From positions 353,896,001-353,960,000 of the forward strand of contig OZ024743.1 in the NCBI GenBank assembly GCA_964016885.1: a stretch of DNA of 64,000 bases, given 5' to 3'. Position 1 is the first letter of the stretch. The number at the start of each line of letters is the position of its first letter. The notes beneath the pieces are model-generated. The model was not told the origin of the DNA. It ran no database searches and saw only the letters and a program-made list of their open reading frames with translations. The position numbers and the translations under genes were made by a program. This DNA comes from Eledone cirrhosa (Eukaryota). Of this stretch, positions 15,851 to 49,775 are shown piece by piece.

Positions 15851-15852
15851 TG

Positions 15853-18149: not shown

Positions 18150-18194
18150 CCTACGGTAGATTGGCAGCATCGGTACGAATGATGATAGTAAGTA

Positions 18195-18395: not shown

Positions 18396-18705
18396 TTGCG
18401 AATGATGATAATTATAATAAGTAGAATAAACAATTGATGATGTACTTAAAATGTTGTACTCGTATGTACATGTGTATTTATAGTATACAAAGAAAAGAAA
18501 TTTGTTCATACAAAATAAATTATGCATTTTTTCTAAAAAAAAATATTTAATTTGCATAAAAAATCATGGCTATCCCAATTGATGTTGTACTGATCATTTT
18601 CAGCTGTCCATGATATTCTCAGCGTGTAGGTTTCACGGTCGCTATGTGTCGTTAACGTTTTATCGAGTCCTCTCTGGATGTTTGCCTTTATATTTATTAT
18701 TACTG

Positions 18706-19393: not shown

Positions 19394-22048
19394 ACTGTAC
19401 AGACGAAGGCGGCCTGAGAACGGTGGATTCACTATGACGTTACGGGGTCATCAAGTTGATAATAGGTGGGTGGTCCCGTACTATCCATTTCTGATGAAAC
19501 TTTCAACGCTCATATAAATGTGGAGTTCTGTCATTCAGTGAAGTCGATAAAGTACATATGTAAATATGTTAACAAGGGTTCCGACGCTGCCATGTTCGGC
19601 CTTCAAAACGACAATAGCAGGGACGAGGTCTCGGAGTACTTGGCAGGTCGATATATCAGCAGTGGTGAAGCTTTTTGGCGGATATTCGGGTTTCCACTTC
19701 ACCAAAGGCACCCCGCCATCATACAACTAGCGGTTCATTTGTAAAACGGCCAGCGGGCTTACTTTACTGAACAGACTGCTGCTCATTTGGCGGCCAATCC
19801 AAAAGAAACAACTTTGACTGTTTTTTTTACGCTTTGCCAACTTGAGACATTTGCAAAAACACTTTCATATCCTCAGGTTCCGTCCTACTACGTGTGGTCA
19901 AACAACACTTGGGTGCGTAGGAAGTCAGGTCAGGATGTTGAAGGACATCCTGGTGTCAAGTTTGACAGTTGTCTAGGAAGAGTGTACACTGTACCTCCCA
20001 ACCAGCATGAGTGTTTTCACCTGCGCCTTCTCCTCCATGAGGTTTTTGGCCCACAAAGCTTTCGAGACATAAGAACTGTTGACGGTGAATTATGTGATAC
20101 TTTCCGGGAAGCCTGCTTTAGGCGTGGCCTTGTGGAGGATGATTCACAATGGGGCGCCACTATGGCAGAGGGCGTTTTGTTGAAATCTCCTAAAAGACTA
20201 AAATCGCTTTTCGCTATTCTACTCCTATGGTGCGATTTGGGTGATCCGGCCTCTTTATGGCTTGGCTACAAAGATTACATGTCTGAAGGTTTCCTGCGTC
20301 ACGCTCAGTTGCTAAACCCATCGATGGAGGTCGGGTACAGTGACCTCATTTACAACAGGGTGCTGCTTGAAATCGAAGATACTGTTCTCGATATGGGCGG
20401 TAGTGCGTTGGCGGTGTATGGCCTACCTTCAATAAACCGGTAAGGCGCAAACACCTTTGGATTTGCTGCGTGAGACATCTTATAATATTGACGAGCTTGC
20501 CCAGTACATAGCGGAGAATGAGCCAAGCTCCTTCCAGAACAGAAATTCCCTTAAAACTCCGTTGTTAATTCTGTCCGGGGAAAATCTGGGGGGATTTTTT
20601 TCCTGGACGCTCCTGGGCGGACTGGGAAAACTTTTGTCACCAAATTAATTGTTTCTACTTTAGGCACAAGGCCAGCAATTACCCAGTGCATTACTGGTAC
20701 TTTATTTTATCGACCCCGTAAGGATGAAAGGCAAAGTCAACCTCGGCGGGATTTGAACTCAGATCGTAAAGGGACGTAACTATGCTGGAAAGCATGGCGT
20801 CCGACCCTCTACCTATACTGCCAATCCACCGCCCTAATATTAGCTGAGATTAGGCGAACAGAAGGCATTGCTTTAGCTGTGGCATTATCTGGAATTGCGG
20901 CTACTTTGTTGCCGGGCGGCAGTACAGCTCACTCCTATTTCAAGCTCCCGCTTGACTTAGCGAAGACTGAGACACCCACTTGCAACATCAGTAAGAGCTC
21001 CGATCAGGCAGAAGTGTTCAGACGATGCAAGCTTATCGTTTGGGACGAATGCAGGATGGCCCACAGAGGTGCTCTTGAGGCGCTAGATAGAACTCTGAGA
21101 GACATCAAAGACTCTACGGCTCCAATGGGAGGCATAACACTTCTTCTTTCAGGGGACTTCAGGCAAACGCTTCCCGTTATTCCCAAGGGGACTAGAGCTG
21201 ATGCAGTGCGTGCGTGTCTTAAGTCATCCGCATTGTGGCCCCTGGTGAAGACTCTGAAACTTCACACTAACATGCGTGCTCATATGCGAGGTGATATCGC
21301 ATCAGCATCATTTTCTCACACCCTCCTTGCACTTGGCGAAGGCAAAACACCCGGGGATGAAAAGGGTAATATTGCCATCGACTCACTTTGTACCGTTGTT
21401 AGTACGCCTTCTGATCTCAGGGATGCAGTGTTACCAGATCTCCAAGCAAATTATCAGAATATGGATTGGCTTGCCCAAAGGGCTATTCTGGCCCCGAGGA
21501 ATAAAACTGTTAACCATATTAATGATCAAATGCTAAAACTCATTCCTGGGGATGGCTACGTATATAAGTCTATCGATAGAACTCCTGACCCTGATGACGT
21601 CATCAACTATCCAACAGAAGTATAAATTCCTTTGAGCCCCCCGGATTACCCCCATACAGTTTGAAACTTAAAGTTGGTGCACCTACAATGCAATGGCACA
21701 CGTTTGGTCGTTAAGTCCTTAGCTCCCAATCTGATTGAGGCCACGATAATCACAGGGTGCGGTCGAGGCAAGGTTGTGCTCATACCGAGGATGCATCTTT
21801 TCCCATCAGGAGCAGACCTACCTTTCACATTTTGGAGGTCCCAGTTCCCGGTCAGGCCATGCTTCGCAATGTCAATTAACAAAGCGCAGGGGCAAACACT
21901 GTCTGTCGCGGGAATACATTTGGGAGAGCCATTTTTCTCTCATGGTCAGCTTTACGTTGGCTGCTCGTGTGTGGGCAGCAAGAGTGATGATTTCGCGTTC
22001 GTTCCGCAAGGAAAAACAAAAAACATTGTGTATAAGGAGGTTTTATAG
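19394..22048 (+). pseudogene. Helitron RepHel (HUH Rep C-terminus plus PIF1-family helicase), frameshifted
   Basis: DNRWVVPY, FNAHINVEFC.SVKSIKYICKYVNKG, Walker A DAPGRTGKT, SGIAATLL, IVWDE, GDFRQTLPV, NGTRL, QFPVRPCFAMSINKAQGQTL, FSHGQLYV, NIVYKEVL*. Confidence 0.92.
20649..20833 (-). mobile_element. Nin/Deu-domain tRNA SINE inserted in the Helitron helicase
   Basis: Near-identical to the 17156-17338 copy. It splits GKTFVTK/LILAEIR and is flanked by taat on both sides. Confidence 0.95.
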
Positions 22049-26996: not shown

Positions 26997-27055
<59 letters not shown>

Positions 27056-27502
27056 CATCTATCTATCTACCTGTCTCTCTGACCCCCCCTCTCTATCTAT
27101 CTATCTATTTGTCTGTCTATCCGTCTGTCTCTGTCTATCTATCCCTCTATCTATCTGTCTATCTATATATCTATTGATTTATCTTTCTGTCTGTCTGTCT
27201 CTCTGTTTGTCTGTCTATCTATCTATCTATTTATCTATCTATCCGATTTCTTTTGTAACTCTTCTTGTTTTTAACTCTTCTACATCTACAACTCCTTACC
27301 ATACTTCTCTTCTTAGCTTCACAATTTTTATCCCTCTCCTTATCTCACATCCTGCCATCATCTTCTCCATTCTCCTTCTAATAACGCACACTACACCTCT
27401 TTACCCAACACCCAACACCTATGTGTTGTTACCTTTTAATGATCGCTTTACACAGTTTTATGTGTTCAGCGAGCTTCTGCAATGAACCGTTAAACACACA
27501 AA

Positions 27503-27591
<89 letters not shown>

Positions 27592-27755
27592 GGGGGGGAG
27601 TGAGAGGAAGGGGATAAGGACAGGGTAAAGATGGCGAGGGAAGGAGTGATATGCAGGGAAACAGATGGTTAGAGTATGAGAAAAGAATATGTCGGAATAT
27701 GGAAGAAGAAAAAGAGGAGGTAAAAGACGGAAGGAAATAAAAAATAAAGAAGAGA

Positions 27756-27802
<47 letters not shown>

Positions 27803-28054
27803 TTTCATTTATTGGCCACAAGGGCCGACATATAGGGGACAACACAATAGACAGGGACAGTGGGGGTTTACATAGAGATCGAGTAAGTATAAATAACAAA
27901 AAAAACAAAATAACAATAAAAATACAACAATGAAAGTTCCCCAATAAGAGGGATCACCACCCAGGGTTGACTCAAGCACCCCACCAGTCCTGAGCCACCC
28001 GACGCTCCTAGGGCACCCGGGAAGGGCACCCCTCTCCTTCTCGAATTCACCAGC

Positions 28055-31000
28055 CTACAGGCGCATGATCAGAGTAGGCCCACTCACGCGGGCCATTCTC
28101 GCCACATTCACCCACCTTTCAGTAAATGTACTGGGGGGCAGCACTTCTCTCTCCACCCTCACCTTCCTTTCCAAGTGAAACTTGAAGAAGTTGATGAGGG
28201 ATTGGCCGAAGAGAAAAGTGTCTGTCTTCAGTCCTTTCAACCTGGTCCACCATGCAACCTCTTTCGCTACTGCCACCAGGCAGAGGAAAATTGCCTGCCC
28301 TTCCTGACCAAAAGAAGGCGGCGGGTCAATCTTCACTATGGACTCGGACGATAGCCGGATCCGTTCTACACGCGACAATAGCTGTTCGACATAACCCCAC
28401 AAGTCAGCAATGCACGGACACTGGACGAGTGCGTGCAGAACGGTTTCGTCGCTCTGCGCGCATCTCGGGCAGGTTCGTCTGACAGCACTTCCGTGCCTGT
28501 AGAGTTTATCCCGAACCGGCAGCGCCCCCCGGTAGCACTGCCAAGCGAGGGATTTCTGGAAGTTATCCATCGTCCCCGGCTCGAAAGTCCTCCGGAACAT
28601 ACTGGTCAGTTCTACTTCGTTGACGCCCAGAGCCTCTCCTAGTACGTCATCGCACTTGCCCTCCACTAATCCTCTATAGAAATCTTGAGTGGAAGTTCCA
28701 CTGACCGCATTGCCCACCTTGCAGAGTGCAGTGAGCGCCTGGCAACATTCCAGATGCCAGTCGCCCAGTCTCGGTCTCTTCTTGACCCAGGACTGCAGCT
28801 CAGTCAAAGAGATGAGCTGCGGAAAGGCCCGTCTAACAAACGGCGACCACACCTGTTCACCGTTTAGGCAAAATATCTGGAGATGTCGCAGCCTCAGCGC
28901 ATGTCTGCGCATCATTAGCCACGGCATGCCCAGCCCTCCACGAAGAGGGTGCTGGCAGCAGATGGACCGCCTCACCAACGGGACCCGTCCCCTCCACAAA
29001 AATTTGAAAAGGAGCCGTTCCAAATTGGCGAGGCGTGGACGGGGGCAAGGCACGACGGTCAGGCGGTAGTAGATGACGGACGCGATGTACGCGCTCGCCA
29101 CCTCCGCCCGCCCTTTCAGTGATAGCTTTCTCTCAGCCCATTTCTGGGTGAGGTTGGCTATCCTGCTCGTCACCTCGTCCCAATTCTTATCCACCTGGAG
29201 GTCTGGTCCGAACCAAACCCCGAGCAACTTTACCGGTCCGTCTGTCCAGCGCCCAACGACGCTGTTGGACGGCATGGACTTGCCTCTCCAGGTGCCGAGC
29301 TGCAAGCCCACCGACTTTTCCGGGTTAAGTTTTGCTCCCGTCAACCTTTCATATTCCTCCAAATGGGTGCGGATCACCTCGATTTCCGAGGTGTCCGACA
29401 CCATCACGGTGATGTCGTCCGCATAAGCGGACGCAGCCTTTCTACGTCCCGGTTCGAGCGGGATGCCCTGCAACAACTCCAGCTTCCGCAGTAGAGGCTC
29501 AAGAGTCAATACGTACAGAAGTGAGGAGAGAGGGCACCCTTGACGGACCGATCGAGAGATCTGAAACGGTTCCGAGAGGTGGCCATTAACTTTGACCACC
29601 GAGCGGATGCCGCTGTACATTGCAGCGATCCAGCTTCTGAAGACGGGGCCGAAGCCAGCCGCCTCGAGGACAGCCTCCAAGTACCGATGGTCGACCCTAT
29701 CGAATGCTTTCGATTGATCTAAATTGATCAGAGCCCCACCGAAGCCAGGTTTGCACCCAACCCTCTCTATGATGTATCGCATGAGGTGGAGGTTGTCGTG
29801 TATGGACCTGGTCGGGATTGCGCAAGTTTGCGCCTCCCCAACCAAATCTTTGACGACAAGCGCCAACCTTTTCGCTAACACCTTGGCCAAAATCTTAAAC
29901 TCTGTGTTGAGCAGGGTTATGGGCCTGAAATTATCTAGTGTGTCCCTCTTGTTCTCGTCTTTCCTTATCAGCGTCACTACGCCACGGCTCACAGAACTGG
30001 GAATGCTCCCGTTCTGCTGCCAGTTGCAGTAGAGCGCTTCGAGGAGATCGGAGAACAAGTCTGGCATATTTACGTAAAGCTCGTAGGGCAGACCATCCAA
30101 ACCGGGTGACTTGCGACTCGAGCAGCCGACAAGGGCGTCCTGAATTTCGGCTGATGTTATCGGCTCTTCGCAGCGCTCAGCGTCGGCCGTCGAGAGGCGT
30201 GGCAAGCCGTCGAGGTAGGGACTGAAGTCCGCCGCCGTCTCCGACTCACCCATCCTCCCGAACAATCGAGCAAAGTGCTGGCGAAAGGCCTCACACATCT
30301 GCTTGGAATCGCTCAGTTCGTGTCCATCTCGATCCGTCAAAGACCGAATTGTGGTTTTATTTCCACGCTGCGTCTCTGCAAAGCGAGCCCATCGGGCAGC
30401 TTTGGTTCCCTCGTTCCTCAGAGCACGCGCCTTAGCTCTGACAATGCAACCTTCGTGTTTCGCATTGAAGAAATGGTCTAGTGCCATTCTCGCCGCTAGC
30501 ACGTCTGTTGCAATGCCACTACAAATAGCCTCGTCTAACTTAGCTATCAGCCCCTCCTCCTTTCTATTTTTCTCTATTGCTACTTCTTTGCTAAATCCTA
30601 TCGAGGTTGCTCTAATCTCTCTTTTGAGTGCCCCCCACCACCTGTTGTTGACAACCCCCCCTGTCAACTTTTGCTTAACTAAGTTGTTGACCCGGTCCCT
30701 GTAAGCTTTACGTGCCGGAAACGACATGTTTAGCTTCCAGTAGCTAGGTCCTAACCTACGTGTCTTATCTAGGTCGACCATACAGATCACAAGCTTGTGA
30801 TCTGAATAGGCAACCGTTTTAAAATGTGGACATCCTACACTATTTCTATCTCTTTTCCTAATGAAAATCCTATCTATGTACGATCTAGATGACCCTATGC
30901 GATTGGTCCAGGTCCATACTGGCGCATTAGGGAAATCTAGTCGGTACCTGTCAGACAGTTGAAACTGGCTGATCAGGTACTTGAGGCTTTTGCACCCCCC

Positions 31001-31474
31001 GCTCCTATCAGATACTCCCACACAATCCCAGCGTGCTTCTAAGATGCCATTCCAATCCCCTATTAACAGTAAAGGGCGAGACGTAAGCAGAAAGTTTTCC
31101 AGGCGCCTAAAGAAGTCCGGCCGACCGGCCCCAGTAGGGGCGTAGACGGCCACCAGTCTAAAGGCACCACCTTCGCTATTGCTCACGTCCAGGACCACCA
31201 ACTTTCCGTCAGGATCCCGGAAGATTGACCTTACCTCGAGATCCAGACATTTCCTAAACAGCACAGCCACTCCACCTCCCATTCCCGGCCGACTAACAGA
31301 TGCAAAGATCTGATAATCGTCGAAAATCGGCGCTAGTGCGCGTGTGTCGGAAATTCTGGTCTCGCTGATGGCAATTACATCCATTCCTAGTGACCTGAGG
31401 TCGTTGAGCAAGTGACCTTGCTTCCAGGGCGACCCCAGGCCACGAACATTTAAACTTCCTACTCTTATGGCCAT
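28055..31474 (-). CDS. LINE ORF2: APE endonuclease, reverse transcriptase, C-terminal zinc finger (1139 aa)
   Basis: SLNVRGL, ISETR, VYAP, GDWN, IDRIF, SDHK; KSPGLDGL, RPITLLN, DQSKAFDRVDH, RQGCPLS, YADD; CPRC...ETVLHALVQC. Uninterrupted. Confidence 0.97.
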   Translation of the reverse strand: MAIRVGSLNVRGLGSPWKQGHLLNDLRSLGMDVIAISETRISDTRALAPIFDDYQIFASVSRPGMGGGVAVLFRKCLDLEVRSIFRDPDGKLVVLDVSNSEGGAFRLVAVYAPTGAGRPDFFRRLENFLLTSRPLLLIGDWNGILEARWDCVGVSDRSGGCKSLKYLISQFQLSDRYRLDFPNAPVWTWTNRIGSSRSYIDRIFIRKRDRNSVGCPHFKTVAYSDHKLVICMVDLDKTRRLGPSYWKLNMSFPARKAYRDRVNNLVKQKLTGGVVNNRWWGALKREIRATSIGFSKEVAIEKNRKEEGLIAKLDEAICSGIATDVLAARMALDHFFNAKHEGCIVRAKARALRNEGTKAARWARFAETQRGNKTTIRSLTDRDGHELSDSKQMCEAFRQHFARLFGRMGESETAADFSPYLDGLPRLSTADAERCEEPITSAEIQDALVGCSSRKSPGLDGLPYELYVNMPDLFSDLLEALYCNWQQNGSIPSSVSRGVVTLIRKDENKRDTLDNFRPITLLNTEFKILAKVLAKRLALVVKDLVGEAQTCAIPTRSIHDNLHLMRYIIERVGCKPGFGGALINLDQSKAFDRVDHRYLEAVLEAAGFGPVFRSWIAAMYSGIRSVVKVNGHLSEPFQISRSVRQGCPLSSLLYVLTLEPLLRKLELLQGIPLEPGRRKAASAYADDITVMVSDTSEIEVIRTHLEEYERLTGAKLNPEKSVGLQLGTWRGKSMPSNSVVGRWTDGPVKLLGVWFGPDLQVDKNWDEVTSRIANLTQKWAERKLSLKGRAEVASAYIASVIYYRLTVVPCPRPRLANLERLLFKFLWRGRVPLVRRSICCQHPLRGGLGMPWLMMRRHALRLRHLQIFCLNGEQVWSPFVRRAFPQLISLTELQSWVKKRPRLGDWHLECCQALTALCKVGNAVSGTSTQDFYRGLVEGKCDDVLGEALGVNEVELTSMFRRTFEPGTMDNFQKSLAWQCYRGALPVRDKLYRHGSAVRRTCPRCAQSDETVLHALVQCPCIADLWGYVEQLLSRVERIRLSSESIVKIDPPPSFGQEGQAIFLCLVAVAKEVAWWTRLKGLKTDTFLFGQSLINFFKFHLERKVRVEREVLPPSTFTERWVNVARMARVSGPTLIMRL

Positions 31475-31503
31475 GCTGGCAGGATGAATGGGAGAGGAAA
31501 GGT

Positions 31504-33408
31504 TTACTTACCTTCCGGGGTCTTGTGAAGGTCGGGTGGTTCGACCTCCATGGTTTGTGGGGTTTCTTTTGGGAACCCCTTTAATAGTCTTGACGTGGGT
31601 TTTACGTTCGGGGTTCCCACATCCCGAGGAAAGCTCTTTCGAATTTCTTTGTATGAAGCGAGCGACATTCGCATCAGAAGCAAATTATCTGGTACGCGAA
31701 ATGTGCTCGCTTCAAATGTTTCCCCGTCTTTTTCGATGTTTGTGCTTCGTGCTACATGGGCCATCAATTCCTTGTTGGCCCTTCTGGCAAGCACGAAGTT
31801 TTTAATGTTTTGTTGCTCGGGTTTTATTTGTTCGTGTGATTGTGGTGGTGATAGCTTTGTTAGTGTTGTTTCTATTGTGTCTGCGTTTGTTGTGGGTGGG
31901 GTGTCTGTAGTTTCTGATGTTTGTGTGTCTATTTGTTCTTGTGTCTGTTTAGCTTGTTTGCGTTTGGGGGATTTTGGTGGTTGTGTTGGTGATGCTGTGG
32001 GGAAAATGTTTGTGTGGGTGGTGTGTGTATTTTTTTTTGTGGGGGTGTTTGTGCTTTGTGGATTTCTTTTTTTTTTGTGTTTTGTTTTTTGTATTTTGGG
32101 GGACTTTGGTTTTCCCTCATCTTCACTGCTGGAGGATGAGGGGTCTGTGGCTGTGAGCGTGTTTGTGTCTGAGTGAGTGTTTATGTTCTTGTTCGTGTGT
32201 GTATTTTGGGGGGGAGGGGGAATGGGAGAGCTTTCCTCGTTTCCCCCCTGGGTGTGCAATTTTGGTGGTTCCATTGTTGACGGTGTTGCTGGTGGTCCTT
32301 GTCCCGGCGTCGCCAGCAGTGGAATCTTTCGACCCCTTGCGCTTTTCGGCAGTTGAGGGCAGAAGGCTCGCAAGTGTGTCGTTTCCCCACAAAGGAAACA
32401 ATGCGGCCTTTTGCCCTCAGTCATTATATGCAACACCCTCCCGTTTTGGAGGCGGATGTGGTCCGGGATTGCTTTTACGTTTTCGGGTCTGATTTGGAGC
32501 AGTATCTCCAGATCAACCCCGGACCAATCGTCCCTGGCAGTTCTCGTTGCCTCTACCGGGACTGTATCCGTTCCTTCCACGATTACGCAACCCAGGAGCC
32601 ACCACATATCAAGTCCTGGTGGAATCCTGGGAATGCGCACACGTGCTATTCGTTTTCCCATGTGGGAGGGGTACATTATAACCTTGCTGGTTTTGCAAGG
32701 GGTCATTGAATGCTTCACAGCGAGGGCTTCAGACTTGAACAGCACCGAAACGGTGCCGTATTGCCTGCCCCTCTCTATGAAGTCTGTGTCCTCTCTGATG
32801 TATTTCAGTGCGGCTTCTATATCAGCTTGGGCGATTATCGCTGCCCTCTTTGTCTCTACTGAGATGCATCTGAAATGCACCGTTCTTTTTTCCACTGCCT
32901 CAATGGCTTCTGCCGGGACAGTTAAGTTTGCCCAGGTCTGCTCTTGATTTATGATTTTCCAGGCCTGGGCCAACTTTTCCTCTCTGTAGGTTAAGTCGAT
33001 GCTGTAGCATGGTCTCCTTTTAGCCGCTGCCACAGCAGCGAAGGTGTTCTTGTTGGTGTTGTCACTGTTGTTGTTCTTGTTGGTGTTGCTGCTGCTATTG
33101 CTGTTGTTGTTCTCCCCTGTGTCGTGGTTACCCTCTGTGCTGTTGGCCTTGTTGGTGCTGTTGCTGTCGCTACTATTACTCTCTGTGCTGTTCGTTTTGT
33201 TGGTGCTCTCGCTATTACCACCTTCTGCGCTGTTCGGCTTGTTGGTGTTGTCGCTGTTACCACCTTCCGCGCCGCTCGGCCCGTTGGTGCTGGCACTGTC
33301 GCTGCTCACATTCGTGCTGGTGGCGCTCCTCGCCTCACCTCTCCTCTCAACACTCAAGTCGCCGTTGCACGACAGCAGACCCGCCTCTAGGGGGCGTGGC
33401 TCCGCCAT
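31504..33408 (-). CDS. LINE ORF1 gag-like nucleic-acid-binding protein (634 aa)
   Basis: CCHC knuckle CFLCGETTHLRAFC, N/S/T-rich N-terminus, basic low-complexity C-terminal region, 29 nt upstream of ORF2. Confidence 0.9.
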   Translation of the reverse strand: MAEPRPLEAGLLSCNGDLSVERRGEARSATSTNVSSDSASTNGPSGAEGGNSDNTNKPNSAEGGNSESTNKTNSTESNSSDSNSTNKANSTEGNHDTGENNNSNSSSNTNKNNNSDNTNKNTFAAVAAAKRRPCYSIDLTYREEKLAQAWKIINQEQTWANLTVPAEAIEAVEKRTVHFRCISVETKRAAIIAQADIEAALKYIREDTDFIERGRQYGTVSVLFKSEALAVKHSMTPCKTSKVIMYPSHMGKRIARVRIPRIPPGLDMWWLLGCVIVEGTDTVPVEATRTARDDWSGVDLEILLQIRPENVKAIPDHIRLQNGRVLHIMTEGKRPHCFLCGETTHLRAFCPQLPKSARGRKIPLLATPGQGPPATPSTMEPPKLHTQGGNEESSPIPPPPQNTHTNKNINTHSDTNTLTATDPSSSSSEDEGKPKSPKIQKTKHKKKRNPQSTNTPTKKNTHTTHTNIFPTASPTQPPKSPKRKQAKQTQEQIDTQTSETTDTPPTTNADTIETTLTKLSPPQSHEQIKPEQQNIKNFVLARRANKELMAHVARSTNIEKDGETFEASTFRVPDNLLLMRMSLASYKEIRKSFPRDVGTPNVKPTSRLLKGFPKETPQTMEVEPPDLHKTPEGK

Positions 33409-33889
33409 GTTTTTTTGAGAAAAAAATTATTATTTTTTTTCAAAATAAAGTTCAAATATTTGGGCCAAAAGGCCCAAATATTATGAGTTATTCCTTCACA
33501 GGATACAAATTAATGTCTTATAATGCTTCAGCGGTACAAAAAAAAAACAATTCTCTACAATTAATCCTCAAAAATTGCTTACTCACGGAGCTTCAAAAAA
33601 CGTACATCCACTTTCGTCAATAATAATAATAATAATGATTTCATTTATTGGCCACAAGGGCCGACATATAGGGGACAACACAATAGACAGGGACAGTGGG
33701 GGTTTACATAGAGATCGAGTAAGTATAAATAACAAAAAAACAAAATAACAATAAAAATACAACAATGAAAGTTCCCCAATAAGAGGGATCACCACCCAGG
33801 GTTGACTCAAGCACCCCACCAGTCCTGAGCCACCCGACGCTCCTAGGGCACCCGGGAAGGGCACCCCTCTCCTTCTCGAATTCACCAGC

Positions 33890-36800
33890 CTACAGGCGCA
33901 TGATCAGAGTAGGCCCACTCACGCGGGCCATTCTCGCCACATTCACCCACCTTTCAGTAAATGTACTGGGGGGCAGCACTTCTCTCTCCACCCTCACCTT
34001 CCTTTCCAAGTGAAACTTGAAGAAGTTGATGAGGGATTGGCCGAAGAGAAAAGTGTCTGTCTTCAGTCCTTTCAACCTGGTCCACCATGCAACCTCTTTC
34101 GCTACTGCCACCAGGCAGAGGAAAATTGCCTGCCCTTCCTGACCAAAAGAAGGTGGCGGGTCAATCTTCACTATGGACTCGGACGATAGCCGGATCCGTT
34201 CTACACGCGACAATAGCTGTTCGACATAACCCCACAAGTCAGCAATGCACGGACACTGGACGAGTGCGTGCAGAACGGTTTCGTCGCTCTGCGCGCATCT
34301 CGGGCAGGTTCGTCTGACAGCACTTCCGTGCCTGTAGAGTTTATCCCGAACCGGCAGCGCCCCCCGGTAGCACTGCCAAGCGAGGGATTTCTGGAAGTTA
34401 TCCATCGTCCCCGGCTCGAAAGTCCTCCGGAACATACTGGTCAGTTCTACTTCGTTGACGCCCAGAGCCTCTCCTAGTACGTCATCGCACTTGCCCTCCA
34501 CTAATCCTCTATAGAAATCTTGAGTGGAAGTTCCACTGACCGCATTGCCCACCTTGCAGAGTGCAGTGAGCGCCTGGCAACATTCCAGATGCCAGTCGCC
34601 CAGTCTCGGTCTCTTCTTGACCCAGGACTGCAGCTCAGTCAAAGAGATGAGCTGCGGAAAGGCCCGTCTAACAAACGGCGACCACACCTGTTCACCGTTT
34701 AGGCAAAATATCTGGAGATGTCGCAGCCTCAGCGCATGTCTGCGCATCATTAGCCACGGCATGCCCAGCCCTCCACGAAGAGGGTGCTGGCAGCAGATGG
34801 ACCGCCTCACCAACGGGACCCGTCCCCTCCACAAAAATTTGAAAAGGAGCCGTTCCAAATTGGCGAGGCGTGGACGGGGGCAAGGCACGACGGTCAGGCG
34901 GTAGTAGATGACGGACGCGATGTACGCGTTCGCCACCTCCGCCCGCCCTTTCAGTGATAGCTTTCTCTCAGCCCATTTCTGGGTGAGGTTGGCTATCCTG
35001 CTCGTCACCTCGTCCCAATTCTTATCCACCTGGAGGTCTGGTCCGAACCAAACCCCGAGCAACTTTACCGGTCCGTCTGTCCAGCGCCCAACGACGCTGT
35101 TGGACGGCATGGACTTGCCTCTCCAGGTGCCGAGCTGCAAGCCCACCGACTTTTCCGGGTTAAGTTTTGCTCCCGTCAACCTTTCATATTCCTCCAAATG
35201 GGTGCGGATCACCTCGATTTCCGAGGTGTCCGACACCATCACGGTGATGTCGTCCGCATAAGCGGACGCAGCCTTTCTACGTCCCGGTTCGAGCGGGATG
35301 CCCTGCAACAACTCCAGCTTCCGCAGTAGAGGCTCAAGAGTCAATACGTACAGAAGTGAGGAGAGAGGGCACCCTTGACGGACCGATCGAGAGATCTGAA
35401 ACGGTTCCGAGAGGTGGCCATTAACTTTGACCACCGAGCGGATGCCGCTGTACATTGCAGCGATCCAGCTTCTGAAGACGGGGCCGAAGCCAGCCGCCTC
35501 GAGGACAGCCTCCAAGTACCGATGGTCGACCCTATCGAATGCTTTCGATTGATCTAAATTGATCAGAGCCCCACCGAAGCCAGGTTTGCACCCAACCCTC
35601 TCTATGATGTATCGCATGAGGTGGAGGTTGTCGTGTATGGACCTGGTCGGGATTGCGCAAGTTTGCGCCTCCCCAACCAAATCTTTGACGACAAGCGCCA
35701 ACCTTTTCGCTAACACCTTGGCCAAAATCTTAAACTCTGTGTTGAGCAGGGTTATGGGCCTGAAATTATCTAGTGTGTCCCTCTTGTTCTCGTCTTTCCT
35801 TATCAGCGTCACTACGCCACGGCTCACAGAACTGGGAATGCTCCCGTTCTGCTGCCAGTTGCAGTAGAGCGCTTCGAGGAGATCGGAGAACAAGTCTGGC
35901 ATATTTACGTAAAGCTCGTAGGGCAGACCATCCAAACCGGGTGACTTGCGACTCGAGCAGCCGACAAGGGCGTCCTGAATTTCGGCTGATGTTATCGGCT
36001 CTTCGCAGCGCTCAGCGTCGGCCGTCGAGAGGCGTGGCAAGCCGTCGAGGTAGGGACTGAAGTCCGCCGCCGTCTCCGACTCACCCATCCTCCCGAACAA
36101 TCGAGCAAAGTGCTGGCGAAAGGCCTCACACATCTGCTTGGAATCGCTCAGTTCGTGTCCATCTCGATCCGTCAAAGACCGAATTGTGGTTTTATTTCCA
36201 CGCTGCGTCTCTGCAAAGCGAGCCCATCGGGCAGCTTTGCTTCCCTCGTTCCTCAGAGCACGCGCCTTAGCTCTGACAATGCAACCTTCGTGTTTCGCAT
36301 TGAAGAAATGGTCTAGTGCCATTCTCGCCGCTAGCACGTCTGTTGCAATGCCACTACAAATAGCCTCGTCTAACTTAGCTATCAGCCCCTCCTCCTTTCT
36401 ATTTTTCTCTATTGCTACTTCTTTGCTAAATCCTATCGAGGTTGCTCTAATCTCTCTTTTGAGTGCCCCCCACCACCTGTTGTTGACAACCCCCCCTGTC
36501 AACTTTTGCTTAACTAAGTTGTTGACCCGGTCCCTGTAAGCTTTACGTGCCGGAAACGACATGTTTAGCTTCCAGTAGCTAGGTCCTAACCTACGTGTCT
36601 TATCTAGGTCGACCATACAGATCACAAGCTTGTGATCTGAATAGGCAACCGTTTTAAAATGTGGACATCCTACACTATTTCTATCTCTTTTCCTAATGAA
36701 AATCCTATCTATGTACGATCTAGATGACCCTATGCGATTGGTCCAGGTCCATACTGGCGCATTAGGGAAATCTAGTCGGTACCTGTCAGACAGTTGAAAC

Positions 36801-37309
36801 TGGCTGATCAGGTACTTGAGGCTTTTGCACCCCCCGCTCCTATCAGATACTCCCACACAATCCCAGCGTGCTTCTAAGATGCCATTCCAATCCCCTATTA
36901 ACAGTAAAGGGCGAGACGTAAGCAGAAAGTTTTCCAGGCGCCTAAAGAAGTCCGGTCAACCGGCCCCAGTAGGGGCGTAGACGGCCACCAGTCTAAAGGC
37001 ACCACCTTCGCTATTGCTCACGTCCAGGACCACCAACTTTCCGTCAGGATCCCGGAAGATTGACCTTACCTCGAGACCCAGACATTTCCTAAACAGCACA
37101 GCCACTCCACCTCCCATTCCCGGCCGACTAACAGATGCAAAGATCTGATAATCGTCGAAAATCGGCGCCAGTGCGCGTGTGTCGGAAATTCTGGTCTCGC
37201 TGATGGCAATTACATCCATTCCTAGTGACCTGAGGTCGTTGAGCAAGTGACCTTGCTTCCAGGGCGACCCCAGGCCACGAACATTTAAACTTCCTACTCT
37301 TATGGCCAT
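33890..37309 (-). pseudogene. LINE ORF2 copy 2 with a premature stop in the endonuclease
   Basis: Codon CGG (R118 in copy 1) is TGA at 36956-36958. The rest of the frame is intact. Confidence 0.9.
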
Positions 37310-37338
37310 GCTGGCAGGATGAATGGGAGAGGAAAGGT

Positions 37339-39249
37339 TTACTTACCTTCCGGGGTCTTGTGAAGGTCGGGTGGTTCGACCTCCATGGTTTGTGGGGTTT
37401 CTTTTGGGAACCCCTTTAATAGTCTTGACGTGGGTTTTACGTTCGGGGTTCCCACATCCCGAGGAAAGCTCTTTCGAATTTCTTTGTATGAAGCGAGCGA
37501 CATTCGCATCAGAAGCAAATTATCTGGTACGCGAAATGTGCTCGCTTCAAATGTTTCCCCGTCTTTTTCGATGTTTGTGCTTCGTGCTACATGGGCCATC
37601 AATTCCTTGTTGGCCCTTCTGGCAAGCACGAAGTTTTTAATGTTTTGTTGCTCGGGTTTTATTTGTTCGTGTGATTGTGGTGGTGATAGCTTTGTTAGTG
37701 TTGTTTCTATTGTGTCTGCGTTTGTTGTGGGTGGGGTGTCTGTAGTTTCTGATGTTTGTGTGTCTATTTGTTCTTGTGTCTGTTTAGCTTGTTTGCGTTT
37801 GGGGGATTTTGGTGGTTGTGTTGGTGATGCTGTGGGGAAAATGTTTGTGTGGGTGGTGTGTGTATTTTTTTTTGTGGGGGTGTTTGTGCTTTGTGGATTT
37901 CTTTTTTTTTTGTGTTTTGTTTTTTGTATTTTGGGGGACTTTGGTTTTCCCTCATCTTCACTGCTGGAGGATGAGGGGTCTGTGGCTGTGAGCGTGTTTG
38001 TGTCTGAGTGAGTGTTTATGTTCTTGTTCGTGTGTGTATTTTGGGGGGGAGGGGGAATGGGAGAGCTTTCCTCGTTTCCCCCCTGGGTGTGCAATTTTGG
38101 TGGTTCCATTGTTGACGGTGTTGCTGGTGGTCCTTGTCCCGGCGTCGCCAGCAGTGGAATCTTTCGACCCCTTGCGCTTTTCGGCAGTTGAGGGCAGAAG
38201 GCTCGCAAGTGTGTCGTTTCCCCACAAAGGAAACAATGCGGCCTTTTGCCCTCAGTCATTATATGCAACACCCTCCCGTTTTGGAGGCGGATGTGGTCCG
38301 GGATTGCTTTTACGTTTTCGGGTCTGATTTGGAGCAGTATCTCCAGATCAACCCCGGACCAGTCGTCCCTGGCAGTTCTCGTTGCCTCTACCGGGACTGT
38401 ATCCGTTCCTTCCACGATTACGCAACCCAGGAGCCACCACATATCAAGTCCTGGTGGAATCCTGGGAATGCGCACACGTGCTATTCGTTTTCCCATGTGG
38501 GAGGGGTACATTATAACCTTGCTGGTTTTGCAAGGGGTCATTGAATGCTTCACAGCGAGGGCTTCAGACTTGAACAGCACCGAAACGGTGCCGTATTGCC
38601 TGCCCCTCTCTATGAAGTCTGTGTCCTCTCTGATGTATTTCAGTGCGGCTTCTATATCAGCTTGGGCGATTATCGCTGCCCTCTTTGTCTCTACTGAGAT
38701 GCATCTGAAATGCACCGTTCTTTTTTCCACTGCCTCAATGGCTTCTGCCGGGACAGTTAAGTTTGCCCAGGTCTGCTCTTGATTTATGATTTTCCAGGCC
38801 TGGGCCAACTTTTCCTCTCTGTAGGTTAAGTCGATGCTGTAGCATGGTCTCCTTTTAGCCGCTGCCACAGCAGCGAAGGTGTTCTTGTTGGTGTTGTCAC
38901 TGTTGTTGTTCTTGTTGGTGTTGCTGCTGCTATTGCTGTTGTTGTTCTCCCCTGTGTCGTGGTTACCCTCTGTGCTGTTGGCCTTGTTGGTGCTGTTGCT
39001 GTCGCTACTATTACTCTCTGTGCTGTTCGTTTTGTTGGTGCTCTCGCTATTACCACCTTCTGCGCTGTTCGGCTTGTTGGTGTTGGTGTTGTCGCTGTTA
39101 CCACCTTCCGCGCCGCTCGGCCCGTTGGTGCTGGCACTGTCGCTGCTCACATTCGTGCTGGTGGCGCTCCTCGCCTCACCTCTCCTCTCAACACTCAAGT
39201 CGCCGTTGCACGACAGCAGACCCGCCTCTAGGGGGCGTGGCTCCGCCAT
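37339..39249 (-). CDS. LINE ORF1 copy 2 (636 aa)
   Basis: Same protein as copy 1 except for a TN insertion in the N-terminal repeat. Confidence 0.9.
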   Translation of the reverse strand: MAEPRPLEAGLLSCNGDLSVERRGEARSATSTNVSSDSASTNGPSGAEGGNSDNTNTNKPNSAEGGNSESTNKTNSTESNSSDSNSTNKANSTEGNHDTGENNNSNSSSNTNKNNNSDNTNKNTFAAVAAAKRRPCYSIDLTYREEKLAQAWKIINQEQTWANLTVPAEAIEAVEKRTVHFRCISVETKRAAIIAQADIEAALKYIREDTDFIERGRQYGTVSVLFKSEALAVKHSMTPCKTSKVIMYPSHMGKRIARVRIPRIPPGLDMWWLLGCVIVEGTDTVPVEATRTARDDWSGVDLEILLQIRPENVKAIPDHIRLQNGRVLHIMTEGKRPHCFLCGETTHLRAFCPQLPKSARGRKIPLLATPGQGPPATPSTMEPPKLHTQGGNEESSPIPPPPQNTHTNKNINTHSDTNTLTATDPSSSSSEDEGKPKSPKIQKTKHKKKRNPQSTNTPTKKNTHTTHTNIFPTASPTQPPKSPKRKQAKQTQEQIDTQTSETTDTPPTTNADTIETTLTKLSPPQSHEQIKPEQQNIKNFVLARRANKELMAHVARSTNIEKDGETFEASTFRVPDNLLLMRMSLASYKEIRKSFPRDVGTPNVKPTSRLLKGFPKETPQTMEVEPPDLHKTPEGK

Positions 39250-40099
39250 GTTTTTTTGAGAAAAAAATTATTATTTTTTTTCAAAATAAAGTTCAAATAT
39301 TTGGGCCAAAAGGCCCAAATATTATGAGTTATTCCTTCACAGGATACAAATTAATGTCTTATAATGCTTCAGCGGTACAAAAAAAAAACAATTCTCTACA
39401 ATTAATCCTCAAAAATTGCTTACTCACGGAGCTTCAAAAAACGTACATCCACTTTCGTCAATAATAATAATAATAATAACAAGATTAATATTTAATTTTG
39501 GATCAGGAATGTTAGAGTCGAAAAGGAAGAAAATGACAAAATGACTAAATAACTAAAGATAATTTCACCACCAACACCACCACCACTACCACGATGAAAA
39601 CTCTGGTCAAGTCGACTCAACCGCTATTTCTACTCCAACTTCAACACCATCACTACAGTACTACGATCATATCACCACCACCACTGCCTCATTATCGCTA
39701 CCGCCGCTATTCGCTATTCTCTCCCACTACCTCCTGCTAGTTGCTGTTAGCACAGCACTGCCACCACCACCACCACCACTGCCTCATTATCACTACCGCC
39801 ACTATTCTCTCCCGCTAACCCCTGATATATTGTAGAATCCCCACTAAAAGAGGAAGGCATCAAAATATATAAATAGACTGAATTGATGACCCGGTCAAAA
39901 TCAAAGCAGCACAGCAACAACGAAAAACGTAAAGAAAAGGAAAATGAAGAGAAGAACAAACAGACGGACAGAGAAGAGAAGGGAAAAACTAAGTCAGACA
40001 TTCAAACACTACATTACAATGAAACTTATGCTTATTCATTTTTGGGTTTTTTTTTGCCTGTTTGTTTGTTTGTTTATTTATGTTCGTCTACAGCGTGAT

Positions 40100-43000
40100 A
40101 ATGCCACACAAAAATCACGTGGAGTGACGAAACCAGCGGAGGTGATGAAATCACCGGTGGTTATGTAACCATACATTCGCCAATCCTCGATAAGAGTGTT
40201 TAAATGTCGAACCTAAACAGTTCGAATAACGGTGAAATGGACACTAGAATGTCATGTGACAGACTCTCACCCAACAGGTGCTCCCTGGCTCAGCAGCAGG
40301 AACCTGGCTGTCAACCAAATACTGCTGGTGTCGGAGGAAGATGAAGAAGGAAAGGGACCAGAACCAACTGGACGAAAGAATTGAATATGCAATGTTACCT
40401 GAAGAGTAACCCCAAGGAGAAAGGCTATAGGAAACGGATGCATAACATCTGGAACGAGATTGGTCTATTTAAATGAGATGAACAAAAATTGGCCGGGCAG
40501 ACTCGGGTAATAAGAACTAATGAGTGGATAAGCGAGCTGGAACTGGAGGAACTGAGCAGAGAGATTAGCTTGGAGATGGAGAGTGGAGTATGCCAGTCAA
40601 ACGAGCCAGTGGGAAATGAAGGTGAAGAGGTCGAGAGAACGGAGAAATCACCCGAAGCAGACAATGATCTGAATGCTGAGATAAATAATACCTGGAACAG
40701 AGATACGGCCACTGAGGAGATGAATGCTGACGGGCTAGGACAAGATTTGGTTGATATCCTAAACTTAGTGGTAGATGAATTGAACAATGATAGTGGGAGA
40801 CCTATGAACCTAAGATTTGTAGACAGGAAAAAGTTAAAAGAAACAACAGCTAAGGTAAACAAAGTCATCCCATACCTTGAGGCGAGGAGCCTTCACCAGT
40901 GCAACAATATCCTCAAAGCAACAGCAAATACGGTGAGGAAACTACTTGGTATAAAAGCGAGAGGAAACAACAGACAAGAAAGATCAGAGCCTTGGTGGAA
41001 GAAACGACTGAGTGGTCAAATCAGGGAAATGAGAAATGACATTGGAAAGCTTGAGTCCCTACTGAATGGGACACTAAAAAACATATACACTAGAGATAGA
41101 CTGGAAATAAAGTACAAAACTAGGAGGAAAAAGCTAAATTTTATCATAGAGGAACTGAAGCAACGCATTGTAGCAAAAAGTGCAAAAATCAGGCGATACG
41201 AGAACAGAGTCAGCCAGTATAGACAGAACCGCATGTTCGACAACAACCAGAAGATGCTGTTTGGACAGCTTGAAGGGAAAGAAAGAGGCAACGACTTGAT
41301 CCCTGAGGCGGAACAAACTAAAACATTCTGGAGAGGAATATGGGAGCAGGATGTTAAACATAATGACCAGGCAGTGTGGATTGAGACAGTACAGAAGGAG
41401 ATTAGTGAACAGGCACACCAACAAACTGATTTGAGTATCACAGTTGAAACTCTTAAGGGGCAGGCCAGAAAACTAACCAACTGGAAACCACCAGGCCCAG
41501 ATGGTGTGCAGGGGTATTGGATTAAAAATATAACATCCCTCTACCCGAAACTGACAACCATGTTCAATGACTGCTTGACGTCAGGTGAGGTACCAGAGTG
41601 GTTGACAAAAGGTACCACAGTTCTGATAATGAAAGACCGAATCAAGGGTAATGATGTTACCAACTATAGACCTATCACATGTCTGTCCGTAATGTGGAAA
41701 CTGTTGACAAGCATTATGTCTGAGGAAATCTACCATCACCTCCACACAAACAACTTGTTACCGGACGAACAGAAAGGATGCCGAAAGAAGTCACGTGGTA
41801 CAAAGGACCAGTTACTTATTGATAAGATGGTAATGAGGAATTGCAAGAGGAGACACACTGGTCTTGCCATGGGATGGATAGACTACAAAAAGGCATTTGA
41901 CATGGTGCCTCATTCTTGGATCACCAAAAGCCTGGAGATCTTCAAGGTGGCAGATAACATCAGACAGTTGTTGGGCAAAAGTATGAAGTCCTGGGAAACA
42001 GAGTTAACATCAACTGGAGAATGCTTGGGAAGCGTGAAGATCAAGAGAGGTATCTTCCAGGGAGATAGTGTGTCCCCTCTGTTGTTTGTCCTTGCCCTGA
42101 TGCCCCTGACCAGTGTACTGCGAAAAGTGAGAGCAGGATGCAGGTTGGGAAAGGGAGGGCTTACCATCAATCACCTCCTCTTCATGGACGATCTTAAGCT
42201 CTTCGGGAAGAGTGAGAAGGAGTTGGATGTGTTGTTGACACTGTCCGTATTTTCAGCAATGATATATGTATGCAATTTGGTATTAGTAAGTGTGGAGTCA
42301 TTGTGATGAAGAGGGGTAAATTGAGCAGAAGTAACGGAATCCAGGTACCAACAGGTGAGATGATAAAGGAAATTGACTCTGAAGAAGGATACAAGTATTT
42401 GGGTATTCTGGAGGCTGATGACATCAAGAACAAAAAAATGAAGGAATTGATAAGAACTGAAATCATTCGGAGAGTAAGGAGCGTATTAAAGTCACATCTG
42501 AACAGTAGGAATGCCATAAGTGCAGTAAATTCCCGAGCTGTGTCTATTATTAGGTACAGTGCGGGAATTCTGAGATGGAATGTTGCTGAACAAAAAGAAA
42601 TGGATAGGAAGACTAGGAAGCTATTGACTATCTACAACATGTTCCACAAGAGGAGTGATGTCGATAGACTCTACTTAAAGAGATCTGAAAGTGGAAGAGG
42701 TCTTATCAGCATAGAGGACTGTGTTCAGATGGAGAAAAACAACCTACACAAATACGTGACTGATAGTAAGGAGCCAATGCTCAGAACTGTACTGAAGGAG
42801 GGGACAATAGACCAGGGGATGTCCAAGGAGGAAATAACATCAAGGAGAAAGAGCAACCTTCGGGAAAAATCCCTTCATAGTACCTTCTTTGAGAAATTTG
42901 ATTTTAGAGATCCACAGACATCGAACTGGTTGAAAAGAGGAGACCTTAAAAAGGCTAAGAAGGAATGTTAATGGCTGCGCAGGAGCAGTCCCTCAAAACG

Positions 43001-43706
43001 AAGTGGTTGAAACACCATATTTACAAGGAGGAGGCTAGCCCACTGTGCAGGATCTGTGGAGAGAGAGAGGAGACTGTGGCTCACATTGTATCCGAGTGTA
43101 AACACATAGTCCAGACTCACTATAAGGGCTGGAGACATGATGTGATGGGCAGGGTGATCCACTGGCACCTATGCAAAGTAAACAATTTACCACATTCTGA
43201 GAAGTGGTATGAGCATAAGCCAGAGTCGGTGATAGAAAACGATCAGGTGAAGGTGCTGTGGGATTTTAGGATACAGACGGACAAGAAACTGGAACACAAT
43301 AGACCTGACCTGGTGGTTGTGGACAAAGAAAAAAGATCGTGCCTGATTGTGGATGTGGCCTGCCCATTCGACACGTGAGTGCAAGAGAAGGAGAGGGAGA
43401 AAATTAACCGATAGCAGGACTTAAAGTGGGAGGTAAAAAGGATTTGGAACTGCCATGAAGTCAAAGTGATCCCGATTGTCATAGGCGCATTAGGGACTAC
43501 CTCAAAAAGTTTCCAGGGATGGTTAAAGAAAATTGGCCCCTTCACGCTTTTTGGAACGCTTCAAAAGGCATGCTTGCTGGGAACAGCAAGAACCCTCCGA
43601 TACGTCCTGAATATCTGAGGCTGCAGGTAGTGGCTTGATATTCATTTCAACAAACTTTCCAGTTAACTAACATTAATGACTGAGACTCAAATAATAATAA
43701 TAATAA

Positions 43707-43737
<31 letters not shown>

Positions 43738-43740
43738 AAT
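40100..43740 (+). mobile_element. Near full-length R4/Dong-like RLE non-LTR retrotransposon with (AAT)n tail
   Basis: Single ORF remnant 40204-43618, short 3' UTR, (AAT)n at 43690-43740. 5' boundary approximate. Confidence 0.9.
40204..43618 (+). pseudogene. R4-like ORF: N-terminal domain, RT, CCHC, PD-(D/E)XK restriction-like endonuclease
   Basis: WTKELN..CY...GYRKRM..IW...EQKLAGQ, NWKPPGPDGVQGYW, NYRPITCL, DYKKAFDMVPH, GIFQGDSVSPLLF, FMDDLK, CRICGEREETVAHIVSEC, RHD, RPDLVVVD..IVDVACP, LQKACLLGTA. Several stops and two frameshifts. Confidence 0.92.
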
Positions 43741-43912
43741 AAGAAGAAACATGGAGTAAATTTCTTACTGCCAATATATCTGTAATATATGTATTATACC
43801 GTTCTCCCTAAATGTAAGGCTTGTGCCTGTGGTAGAATTCCTTATTTTTGATTTTGGGCGCATGCGTGTGCACATAGTTTAATTGTACACGCCTATTTAT
43901 ATGAATTTACAA

Positions 43913-44102
43913 GGCAGTGGACTGGCAGAATCGTTTGAAAGTTGAACAAATTTCTTTGGTGTATTTGATCAGGCCTTTTATATTTTGATCTCAAATCGTT
44001 CCGAGCATAACCTTTCGAGTCGATAAAATAAAGTACCAGTCAAGTACTGGAATTGAGTTCCCCTTGCCCTAAAATTGCTGGACTTTTCCTTAAATTAGAA
44101 TC
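43913..44102 (+). mobile_element. Diverged Nin/Deu-domain SINE
   Basis: ggcagtggactggcagaatcgtt head, gtcgataaaataaagtaccagt core, aaattgctggac...ttagaa tail. Confidence 0.65.
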
Positions 44103-44314
44103 AACTTATAAAAACCTTCTTTTCATACACACATATCACATATTTGCTGCTATCACAACAGGATGGTTGTAAATGGCCAGCAGCATTTCCTAATGATTGC
44201 ATAACTGTACCTATGATTGCGTAAGAATCTGATGAAGTCACATGCATAACCATGTAACAGAAATCTTTATCATAGCAATTATGATGAAATAATCCCGTCC
44301 TACCTACTGTTATT

Positions 44315-49279: not shown

Positions 49280-49775
49280 CCATTTCAACAAATACCACCA
49301 TTACAACACCTACCATCATCACCATTATTATCATAACCACTAACATACAACCCCACTCAACCAGCAATACTACAATCATCACTACCACCACCATCGCCGC
49401 CACCGAAACAACAATATCAACCCTCCCATCCTACCACTACCACCACTACCACCGCACCACAACCATCATCACTAATAGCAAAGACAGTGTCTACACCGAG
49501 ATCATTCCCAGCTAAACCACCAATACCGCAGCCATAATAACTAGCACGACCACGACGGCGACGAAGATCAGTCCCTCATCACCACCTCCACCATCACCAC
49601 CACCACCGACACCACTATCACCATCATCACCGCCACCACCACCACCACCACCGACACCACCATCACCATCATCATCACCACCACCACCACCACCATCGCC
49701 GCCGCCGCCATCACCACCATCACCAACACTACCACCACCATCGCCACCGCCGCCACCACCACCAATAACAACAAC
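49280..49775. repeat. (CAC/CAT/CGC)n degenerate trinucleotide tract
   Basis: Directly visible. It grades into the minisatellite. Confidence 0.85.

Follow-up and report, generated by a model that had tools for sequence, protein, structure and literature searches.

A head-to-tail pair of L1/Tx1-group LINEs in an (ATT)n repeat and its possible origin by two insertions at one site

Described systems and the ATT locus

Several Tx1 families of LINEs reside in microsatellites: Kibi in (TC)n and Koshi in (TTC)n, precedents rightly cited in a preliminary description of the DNA analysed here, and crocodilian families in (TTCC)n or (TTTC)n (PMC4494074). Tandem SINEU-3 copies sandwich a target-site duplication, or TSD (PMC4494074), and double-insertion dimers with a TSD in the junction are known (PMC5932611). 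For R1Bm and SART1Bm, a target-like 3' end of the RNA aids accurate priming (PMC7265360), and the hairpin loop of the endonuclease (EN) has been tied to target specificity (PMC1950540). An ORF1 with RRMs and a CCHC knuckle is consistent with Tx1 (PMC5203782). For Octopus vulgaris, Table 1 of PMC13282606 names 13 L1-Tx1 families with recent activity; the accessible part of that paper does not analyse their targets. The 'Tx1' in the accessible part of PMC4176376 names mutants, not the clade.

The locus described here lies in a 64-kb window (the whole stretch of 64,000 nucleotides that was analysed) and comprises two LINEs arranged head-to-tail. Read along the minus strand, the locus runs from one flank through TT+(ATT)6, copy B, (ATT)6, copy A and (ATT)15 to the other flank. 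The outer 5' tract (39460-39479) has 20 nt of AAT periodicity, and an 18-nt TSD likely has its upstream copy within it. It is followed by copy B (33637-39459), a full-length LINE of 5,823 nt whose ORF2 is disabled; by a junction linker of exactly 18 nt (33619-33636), a perfect (AAT)6 = (ATT)6 and likely a TSD; by copy A (27801-33618), an intact full-length LINE of 5,818 nt; and by a perfect (AAT)15 = (ATT)15 (27756-27800), which may comprise the TSD and the rest of the target and/or a tail. The preliminary description, which read the locus as (AAT)n-element-(AAT)6-element-(AAT)n with both elements on the minus strand, was accurate, the tracts being (AAT)15, (AAT)6 and 20 nt, and alignment confirms its statement that both 5' ends are full-length at the same base. 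Both copies start with GACGAAAGTGG directly after TTATT and end with AATAAATGAAATC directly before ATT.

Exactly (ATT)6, in phase, stands upstream of each copy, and (ATT)6 is also contained in the 3' tract, so that a TSD-length copy of the target is present at the junction and at both edges. A repeat of at least 18 nt in ATT phase precedes only 21 of 104,652 strand-positions in the window outside the locus, which argues that the outer 5' tract is not there by chance. We infer the TSD status of (ATT)6, since the site is itself a repeat, in which a TSD is indistinguishable from a tail or from slippage. The window contains no other full copy of this LINE and a single endonuclease fragment (15668-15854; 187 nt, 82% identical, without ends). 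Both copies (2/2) reside in a microsatellite, at one and the same site; a target preference in Tx1 has been taken to require more than 20% of flanks (PMC4494074, accessible text), and this family is seen at one locus.

Copy A consists of a 210-nt 5' UTR (33409-33618; no Rfam family), ORF1, a 29-nt spacer, ORF2 and a 254-nt 3' UTR, all on the minus strand. ORF1 (31504-33408, 634 aa) has low-complexity ends, a predicted tandem RRM core and one CX2CX4HX4C knuckle; ORF2 (28055-31474, 1139 aa) encodes an APE endonuclease, a reverse transcriptase (RT; YADD at 684) and a zf-RVT. The 3' end (27801-27826) is made up of a hairpin (27814-27826), AATAAA (27808-27813) and TGAAATC. Copy B, on the same strand, has a 5' UTR of 210 nt (39250-39459), an open ORF1 of 636 aa with a 2-aa insertion (37339-39249), an ORF2 (33890-37309) whose endonuclease is interrupted by an early stop at codon 118 (36956-36958), and a 3' end (33637-33662) with a GGCC-CTTGT-GGCC hairpin (33650-33662), AATAAA (33644-33649) and TGAAATC. 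ORF2 matches Exo_endo_phos (1.7e-14), RVT_1 (1.3e-29) and zf-RVT (1.1e-8) in Pfam, and its best PDB matches are to LINE-1 ORF2p (8sxt, E 3e-57), above R2 (3e-22). Full-length ORF1 has no Pfam match; zf-CCHC is found in 14 of 15 aligned ORF1 cores, the core of the window LINE itself reaching only E 0.22. A model of the ORF1 core folded with 14 relatives (pLDDT 78) matches tandem RRMs at E 1e-5. The nearest sequence-atlas clusters for ORF1 are mostly molluscan, a hint only.

An ORF2 with N-terminal APE, RT and C-terminal zinc finger, together with a separate ORF1, places the element in the L1 group. Its ORF1, with a knuckle and predicted RRMs, is of the Tx1 type, which is not exclusive to Tx1, and membership of Tx1 is likely on this ground. 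The Tx1-like LINE of the preliminary description is thus supported as to its L1/Tx1-group anatomy. Homologue searches and cluster look-ups returned no named Tx1 family. Identity with R4/Dong, which have a single ORF and a C-terminal restriction-like endonuclease, is rejected, as the window LINE has two ORFs and an N-terminal APE. Nor is it an RNA-gene-targeting Tx1 of the Keno type: there is no snRNA, tRNA or 5S gene at the flanks. At gathering score, Rfam matches nothing within 27000-40500 and nothing at 7 of the relatives' array loci, and no tRNA gene is present at 20 relatives' loci; one relative, 28% identical, interrupts a U1 gene.

Differences between the copies and the origin of the dimer

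Copies A and B are 99.74% identical over 5,825 columns and differ by 8 substitutions and 2 indels. Seven of the 8 substitutions are transitions, 2 are at CpG, and substitution divergence is 0.14%. One indel is of 1 nt in an A-run at 27898, the other a 6-nt in-frame insertion in ORF1 of copy B (39075-39080). By effect, 4 differences are silent, 3 missense and 1 nonsense; as a test of insertion versus duplication, the silent/missense mix has too few sites to separate the two. The stop at codon 118 of copy B ORF2, overlooked in the preliminary description, falls where arginine is nearly invariant. With P0003 (78% identical to the window LINE), alignment A1 and the old fragment at 15668-15854 as references, private derived changes are assigned to B at codons 78, 118 and 357 and to A at codon 794, the other four substitutions being unpolarised. 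Copy A is intact and probably young.

Private changes in both copies, and the same layout in relatives and in a SINE dimer (see below), support two separate target-primed insertions of L1/Tx1-group LINEs at one site, with (ATT)6 as a likely 18-nt TSD that would regenerate the target. We regard this origin as the probable one, with some reserve. The APE would nick the (AAT) strand at the first ATT unit, and the RNA, recognised via its 3' hairpin and ending in AUU units, would pair with the freed DNA end and prime reverse transcription. A second nick 18 nt on would leave (ATT)6 on both sides of each insertion, with little or no added tail. The second insertion would then re-use the regenerated site, and at least (ATT)6 would have been present before the first. 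Either order of insertion fits, because the TT+(ATT)6 outside and the (ATT)6 at the junction follow from one rule. In the preliminary description, the element's own ATT tail was held to recreate the target; however, the junction measures exactly 18 nt, as do TSDs in relatives and in the SINE, and has no extra tail, so that the duplicated target is more likely to do so. Against a double insertion, both window copies are full-length, whereas the non-LTR dimers in the accessible text of PMC5932611 mostly have one truncated member. The evidence at the dimer itself comprises one locus, two copies and assembly sequence.

The near-identity of A and B and their common start would also follow from a single insertion into (ATT)n and its subsequent duplication, whether through unequal crossover or through annealing between the 5' and 3' ATT tracts, which offer 18-45 nt of homology. 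Duplication does occur in the lineage, as a tandem of two identical truncated units on contig 8 of the relatives indicates. Such an origin is unlikely here: the junction would have to be the shortest in-register product, by our reckoning one of about ten registers that a 45-nt tract allows, the two members of the SINE dimer are far from identical, and different 5' UTR types occur side by side on one contig in the arrays of the relatives. The first insertion would in any case need an ATT target. The 0.14% divergence is also within the allelic range, as expected if the assembly, or the merging of haplotypes, had falsely duplicated a single-copy insertion. However, the duplicated unit ends exactly at the element ends, with no flank repeated, the substitutions are mostly transitions (7/8, with 2 at CpG), and the same layout recurs in an independent assembly (locus L016) and in a diverged SINE pair, which makes this the least probable of the explanations considered.

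Arrays of relatives and the SINE of the window

A scan of a genome collection for relatives gave 45 loci, of which 41 lie on 16 contigs of CAXXMW01, an assembly labelled bacterium; its animal-like microsatellite flanks indicate that it is likely host DNA. The ORF2 of the CAXXMW01 relatives are 40-42% identical to that of the window LINE over the full length, and their ORF1 are homologous at ~22-27% identity (tblastn); a word search for ORF1 homologues found 0 among 709 candidates. In an RT tree of 38 rows, unlabelled and without named Tx1 references, the window LINE and P0003 are sister to the CAXXMW01 array clade with support 91/97, the branch to the array clade missing the 95 bootstrap mark.

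The CAXXMW01 contigs carry head-to-tail LINE arrays with a period of ~6.4-6.85 kb, in which ORF2 is open in 54 of the 55 distinct copies seen as one full-span match, a count that left out frameshift-split and truncated copies. The relatives' 3' ends (65) have a GGCCTYGTGCC hairpin and AATAAA, then a linker of 17-18 nt. The linker is followed by a full 5' UTR in 58 of 65 cases (57 matched, 1 assigned), by a 5'-truncated copy in 3 and by non-element DNA in 4. ATT repeats or poly(A) follow none of the 65 ends, and no telomeric or ATT repeats were detected in the arrays at the 41 loci. The (ATT)6 junction of the window has the linker length of the lineage; as the linkers of the relatives are not microsatellites, stacking does not need one, and head-to-tail arrangement looks like a trait of the lineage. 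The L016 dimer, with 4 differences in 3,400 nt, has related 18-mers at its 5' edge, junction and 3' edge, and its layout of linker-copy-linker-copy-linker is that of the window dimer. Tandem stacking through re-use of a regenerated site, as the preliminary description proposed, gains support from this shared architecture and from the SINE dimer.

Where arrays mix 5' UTR types, the second half of the linker goes with the type of the downstream 5' UTR, as if transcripts spanned the junctions. This pattern, and the fact that relatives are mostly in arrays, would suit insertion of the dimer as one event, in which the RT either left a first RNA at its 5' end for the (AUU)6 tail of a second or copied a read-through tandem transcript, and a single event would account for two full-length copies. 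It is nonetheless quite unlikely in the window. Under a template jump, a junction of exactly 18 nt, the TSD length, would be a coincidence. Moreover, contig 8 has a 17-mer that stands before two truncated copies and again after the last copy, in the manner of a TSD, so that the linkers before truncated copies equal array-edge sequence.

The linkers of the arrays fall into nine classes by our own grouping (13-17 of 18 positions identical within a class, 0-8 of 18 between classes). One genome thus holds about nine unrelated classes, eight of them with endonucleases that are 90-96% identical. Identity among endonuclease domains is 90-100% for all contigs but contig 12 (15 of 16; 44-47% for contig 12), and the EN hairpin loop is identical on 13 of 16, changed by one residue on 2 and different on contig 12. 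Nor do linkers track ORF1 type, as cores that are 63% alike share a class and cores that are 82-92% alike do not. At the four 3' edges of arrays, agreement with the class linker is 16/17, 15/18, 15/18 and 14/17, where the edge could be target or RNA read-through. Three clear 5' edges carry a full linker (contig 16), 16 nt (contig 5) and a weak match (contig 18), in a tally that left out two uncovered 5' stretches (L022, L023). In L016, the linkers at the 5' edge and in the middle resemble mosaics, with parts of its 3'-edge site and parts of the contig 13 linker.

Near-constant EN loops across nine linker classes, linkers that do not track ORF1 and the L016 mosaics suggest, rather speculatively, that the lineage writes its target into its RNA. 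Transcripts of stacked copies would carry at both ends the ~18-nt duplication left by the preceding insertion, and pairing with it would select new sites. Subfamilies with nearly the same endonuclease would thereby home to unrelated 18-mers and build arrays of intact LINEs over tens of kb. The window LINE would be the (ATT)n-tag branch, and it or a sister family would drive the abundant ATT-tailed SINE. This proposal, on which we would not yet rely, is based on one assembly and a handful of array edges; small protein differences outside the EN loop could explain the switching of linkers instead.

The 64-kb window contains eight copies of a SINE and one weak fragment, and seven copies have the 3' end. 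The SINE head has tRNA-type boxes, and we take the element to look like an octopus SINE. The copy at 17138-17356 (plus strand), which carries the 3' hairpin of the lineage, lies inside a coding remnant (ETINHIISEC) and has a perfect 18-nt TSD (17138-17155/17339-17356; 18/18, starting ATTATT, null fraction 1/3,000). The 18395 copy has a TSD of 13/14 (5/3,000) and the 11576 copy one of 6/6, ATTATT (42/3,000), while 4 of the 7 copies have no significant TSD, one of these with a 21-nt inverted 5' piece left in the test. The coding frames into which the 17155 and 20833 copies are inserted can still be read, and they show that the empty site starts with ATTA. Two diverged copies (18179-18413 and 17927-18168), only 69-80% alike, form a head-to-tail dimer on the minus strand (17923-18413), whose 5' edge, junction and 3' edge all carry related ATT/ATC-rich linkers. 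None of the seven copies with a 3' end lies in a long (ATT)n.

These SINE sites bear on whether the window LINE needs an ATT target at all. The upstream (ATT)6 could belong to the 5' end of the element itself, as a tag acquired from a neighbour upstream, in which case no such target is required. Its same length and phase before both copies, the 16 nt of class linker at the 5' array edge of contig 5 and the lack of any TSD seen outside the ATT tract at the dimer locus are in keeping with this. However, the flank extends the ATT periodicity by TT, and the SINE TSDs with a readable empty site (17155 and 20833 copies) start with ATTA, so that a captured tag is very improbable. An ATT preference of the window LINE is plausible, and it is likely one for sites beginning ATT(A/T), best provided by (ATT)n, rather than for long microsatellites as such. 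Of the (ATT)n target put forward in the preliminary description, the non-chance 5' tract stands, but strict specificity is not supported, given one locus, 0/65 ends of relatives and 0/7 SINE copies; the same counts lend no support to its suggestion that the element seeds microsatellites.

The SINE tail consists of a CUUGU-type loop, common to the LINE, on a 4-bp stem, then GAAAC(A/C) and AT(T). Over 16 distinct LINE and SINE ends, this hairpin, defined only after the sequences were seen, is paired in 89% of 64 cells; 2 of its 4 pairs are changed on both sides, and a control slid by +1 shows similar covariation (0.221 vs 0.237). Neither the 3' nor the 5' RNA fold is unusually stable (3' hairpin against shuffles, z 0.15-1.24). 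The SINE tail aligns significantly with the relative L003 in 4/4 comparisons (p 0.0005-0.008) and falls below p 0.05 with the relative L034 in 2/4, but with the window LINE in 0/4 (p 0.055-0.57). The partner of the SINE may thus be a sister family. The last 60 nt of the window LINE show no significant match to relatives' ends (0/3, p 0.09-0.94). An R4-like copy that ends in an (AAT)n tail is located 1 kb from the LINE dimer; as a SINE partner it was rejected, its 3' end matching the SINE tail in 0/4. If a family like the window LINE moves the SINE, its target is a short motif starting with ATT. The comparison points to a lineage that may be the partner of this common SINE.

Significance and comparison with known systems

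The locus alone is a modest addition, since microsatellite-targeting Tx1 elements and double-insertion dimers were already known; what it adds is an ATT-site family with an intact copy. The arrays of the sister clade consist mostly of intact LINEs, separated by linkers of TSD length that change without a matching change in the endonuclease loop. They make the question of target switching by sequence-specific LINEs testable, and offer a route from a LINE to a satellite-like array. If true, an RNA-carried target would explain frequent target switching of the Tx1 type, and a LINE could be retargeted by changing ~18 nt of its RNA. Tail-swap tests are straightforward, since copy A is intact, the SINE is a natural substrate and there are several linker classes to draw on. 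A literature search outside Repbase and subscription journals turned up neither a Tx1 family that targets ATT, nor arrays of Tx1 in which the linkers switch, nor a SINE pair of this kind; the family of the window LINE may already be named, and the supplements of PMC4494074 may list an ATT-targeting family.

Among known systems, the closest parallel is a Tx1 element with a target preference that has produced a dimer by double insertion. Like Kibi and Koshi, the window LINE is a two-ORF APE-RT LINE with an RRM/CCHC ORF1 that sits in a simple repeat. However, its repeat unit, ATT, is not listed in the accessible text of PMC4494074, and its nearest relatives with DNA use unique 17-18-mers rather than microsatellites. 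The arrays and double-insertion dimers of Drosophila R1 (PMC5932611, accessible text) are similar in that TSD-separated copies stand head-to-tail, some then followed by 5'-truncated copies, and can expand; the target of R1 is a single fixed site in rDNA, and its TSD is 33 nt long (same source), whereas the CAXXMW01 relatives have about nine unrelated linker classes. In crocodilian SINEU/Tx1-Mar (PMC4494074, accessible text), as here, a SINE shares target habits with a Tx1-like LINE, and tandem SINEs sandwich a TSD; in contrast, the window SINE has a tRNA-type head, it is linked to the LINE through a 3' hairpin common to both, and its target is a short motif starting with ATT, not Mariner. In R1Bm and SART1Bm, annealing refines a target set by protein, whereas in the RNA-carried reading of the array lineage it would both set and switch the target. 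The window LINE resembles human LINE-1 ORF2p (8sxt) in APE-RT order and catalytic motifs, and its EN hairpin loop is equally long; the Tx1L graft in 2v0r is longer by 2 aa. Unlike human LINE-1, it has no poly(A) tail, a CCHC knuckle in ORF1 and a shorter ORF2 (1139 aa). Dong/R4 elements target (TAA)n. The window LINE is associated with the same double-stranded AAT/ATT repeat, but Dong/R4 have a single ORF, a restriction-like endonuclease and the opposite strand sense.

Motifs in and beside the paired LINEs

Motifs resembling splice donors (GTRAGT) are found repeatedly within the 5' UTR and where ORF1 stops, both in the element, an L1/Tx1-group LINE present as a head-to-tail dimer, and in its relatives. 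In the window they lie at 33586 and 31511 on the minus strand, and in L003, an array locus of a sister clade, near 5783, 7990 and 11484; the relatives carry a further such motif directly past ORF2. The flank preceding the outer 5' ATT tract of the dimer reads AATCTTG (39480-39487, minus strand) and echoes the AAATC end of the element, so the target may resemble the element's 3' end beyond the repeat itself, a sequence likeness of only four bases that possibly arose by chance.

Neighboring repeats and remnants

An old endonuclease fragment of 187 nt (15668-15854, minus strand) is 82% identical to the element and lacks the element's ends. The dimer lies about 1 kb from a decayed R4/Dong-like LINE of opposite orientation (about 40150-43742, plus strand), which retains RT, CCHC and restriction-like endonuclease motifs and has an (AAT)n tail at 43690-43742; AAT is absent from the 5' side of this LINE. 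At 7154-10477 (plus strand), the text of broken reading frames resembles RT (GDVANLF, YSRYVDD); these frames gave no Pfam match, and we take them to be probably a Penelope-like element. An asparagine-rich repeat occupies 8000-8350.

The SINE that shares the LINE lineage's 3' hairpin has tRNA-type A and B boxes and is present in eight copies (5088-5247, 5278-5485, 11380-11589, 17139-17353, 17927-18168, 18179-18413, 20637-20851 and 43896-44118). The copy headed at 18150 has its own 5' end duplicated in inverted form over 21 nt, and a SINE breaks the GKT..LILAEIR frame of a Helitron-like remnant (19745-21625, plus strand; PIF1 helicase domain, E 6.5e-52). A satellite with a 32-nt ACCACTAACAAC-type unit (49761-64000; about 438 copies, 80% matches) continues past the window end.

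Relatives in other genome records

One genome record, labelled Arenicella (CAXXMW01), holds head-to-tail LINE arrays on 16 contigs (2-14 and 16-18; loci L001-L039, L042 and L043), including a single array spanning about 70 kb on contig 8. The ORF2s are for the most part intact, and ORF1/5' UTR modules have been swapped. These contigs are likely animal DNA placed in a bacterial bin. Another relative, 28% identical to the element (L040, 3036-10166), carries a short poly(A) and sits between a full U1 snRNA gene on one side and a 5'-broken U1 on the other. Read by eye, a direct repeat of ~157 nt (3072-3228 and 10010-10166) is present at this locus; the relative is apparently a U1-targeting element with a very long target-site duplication.
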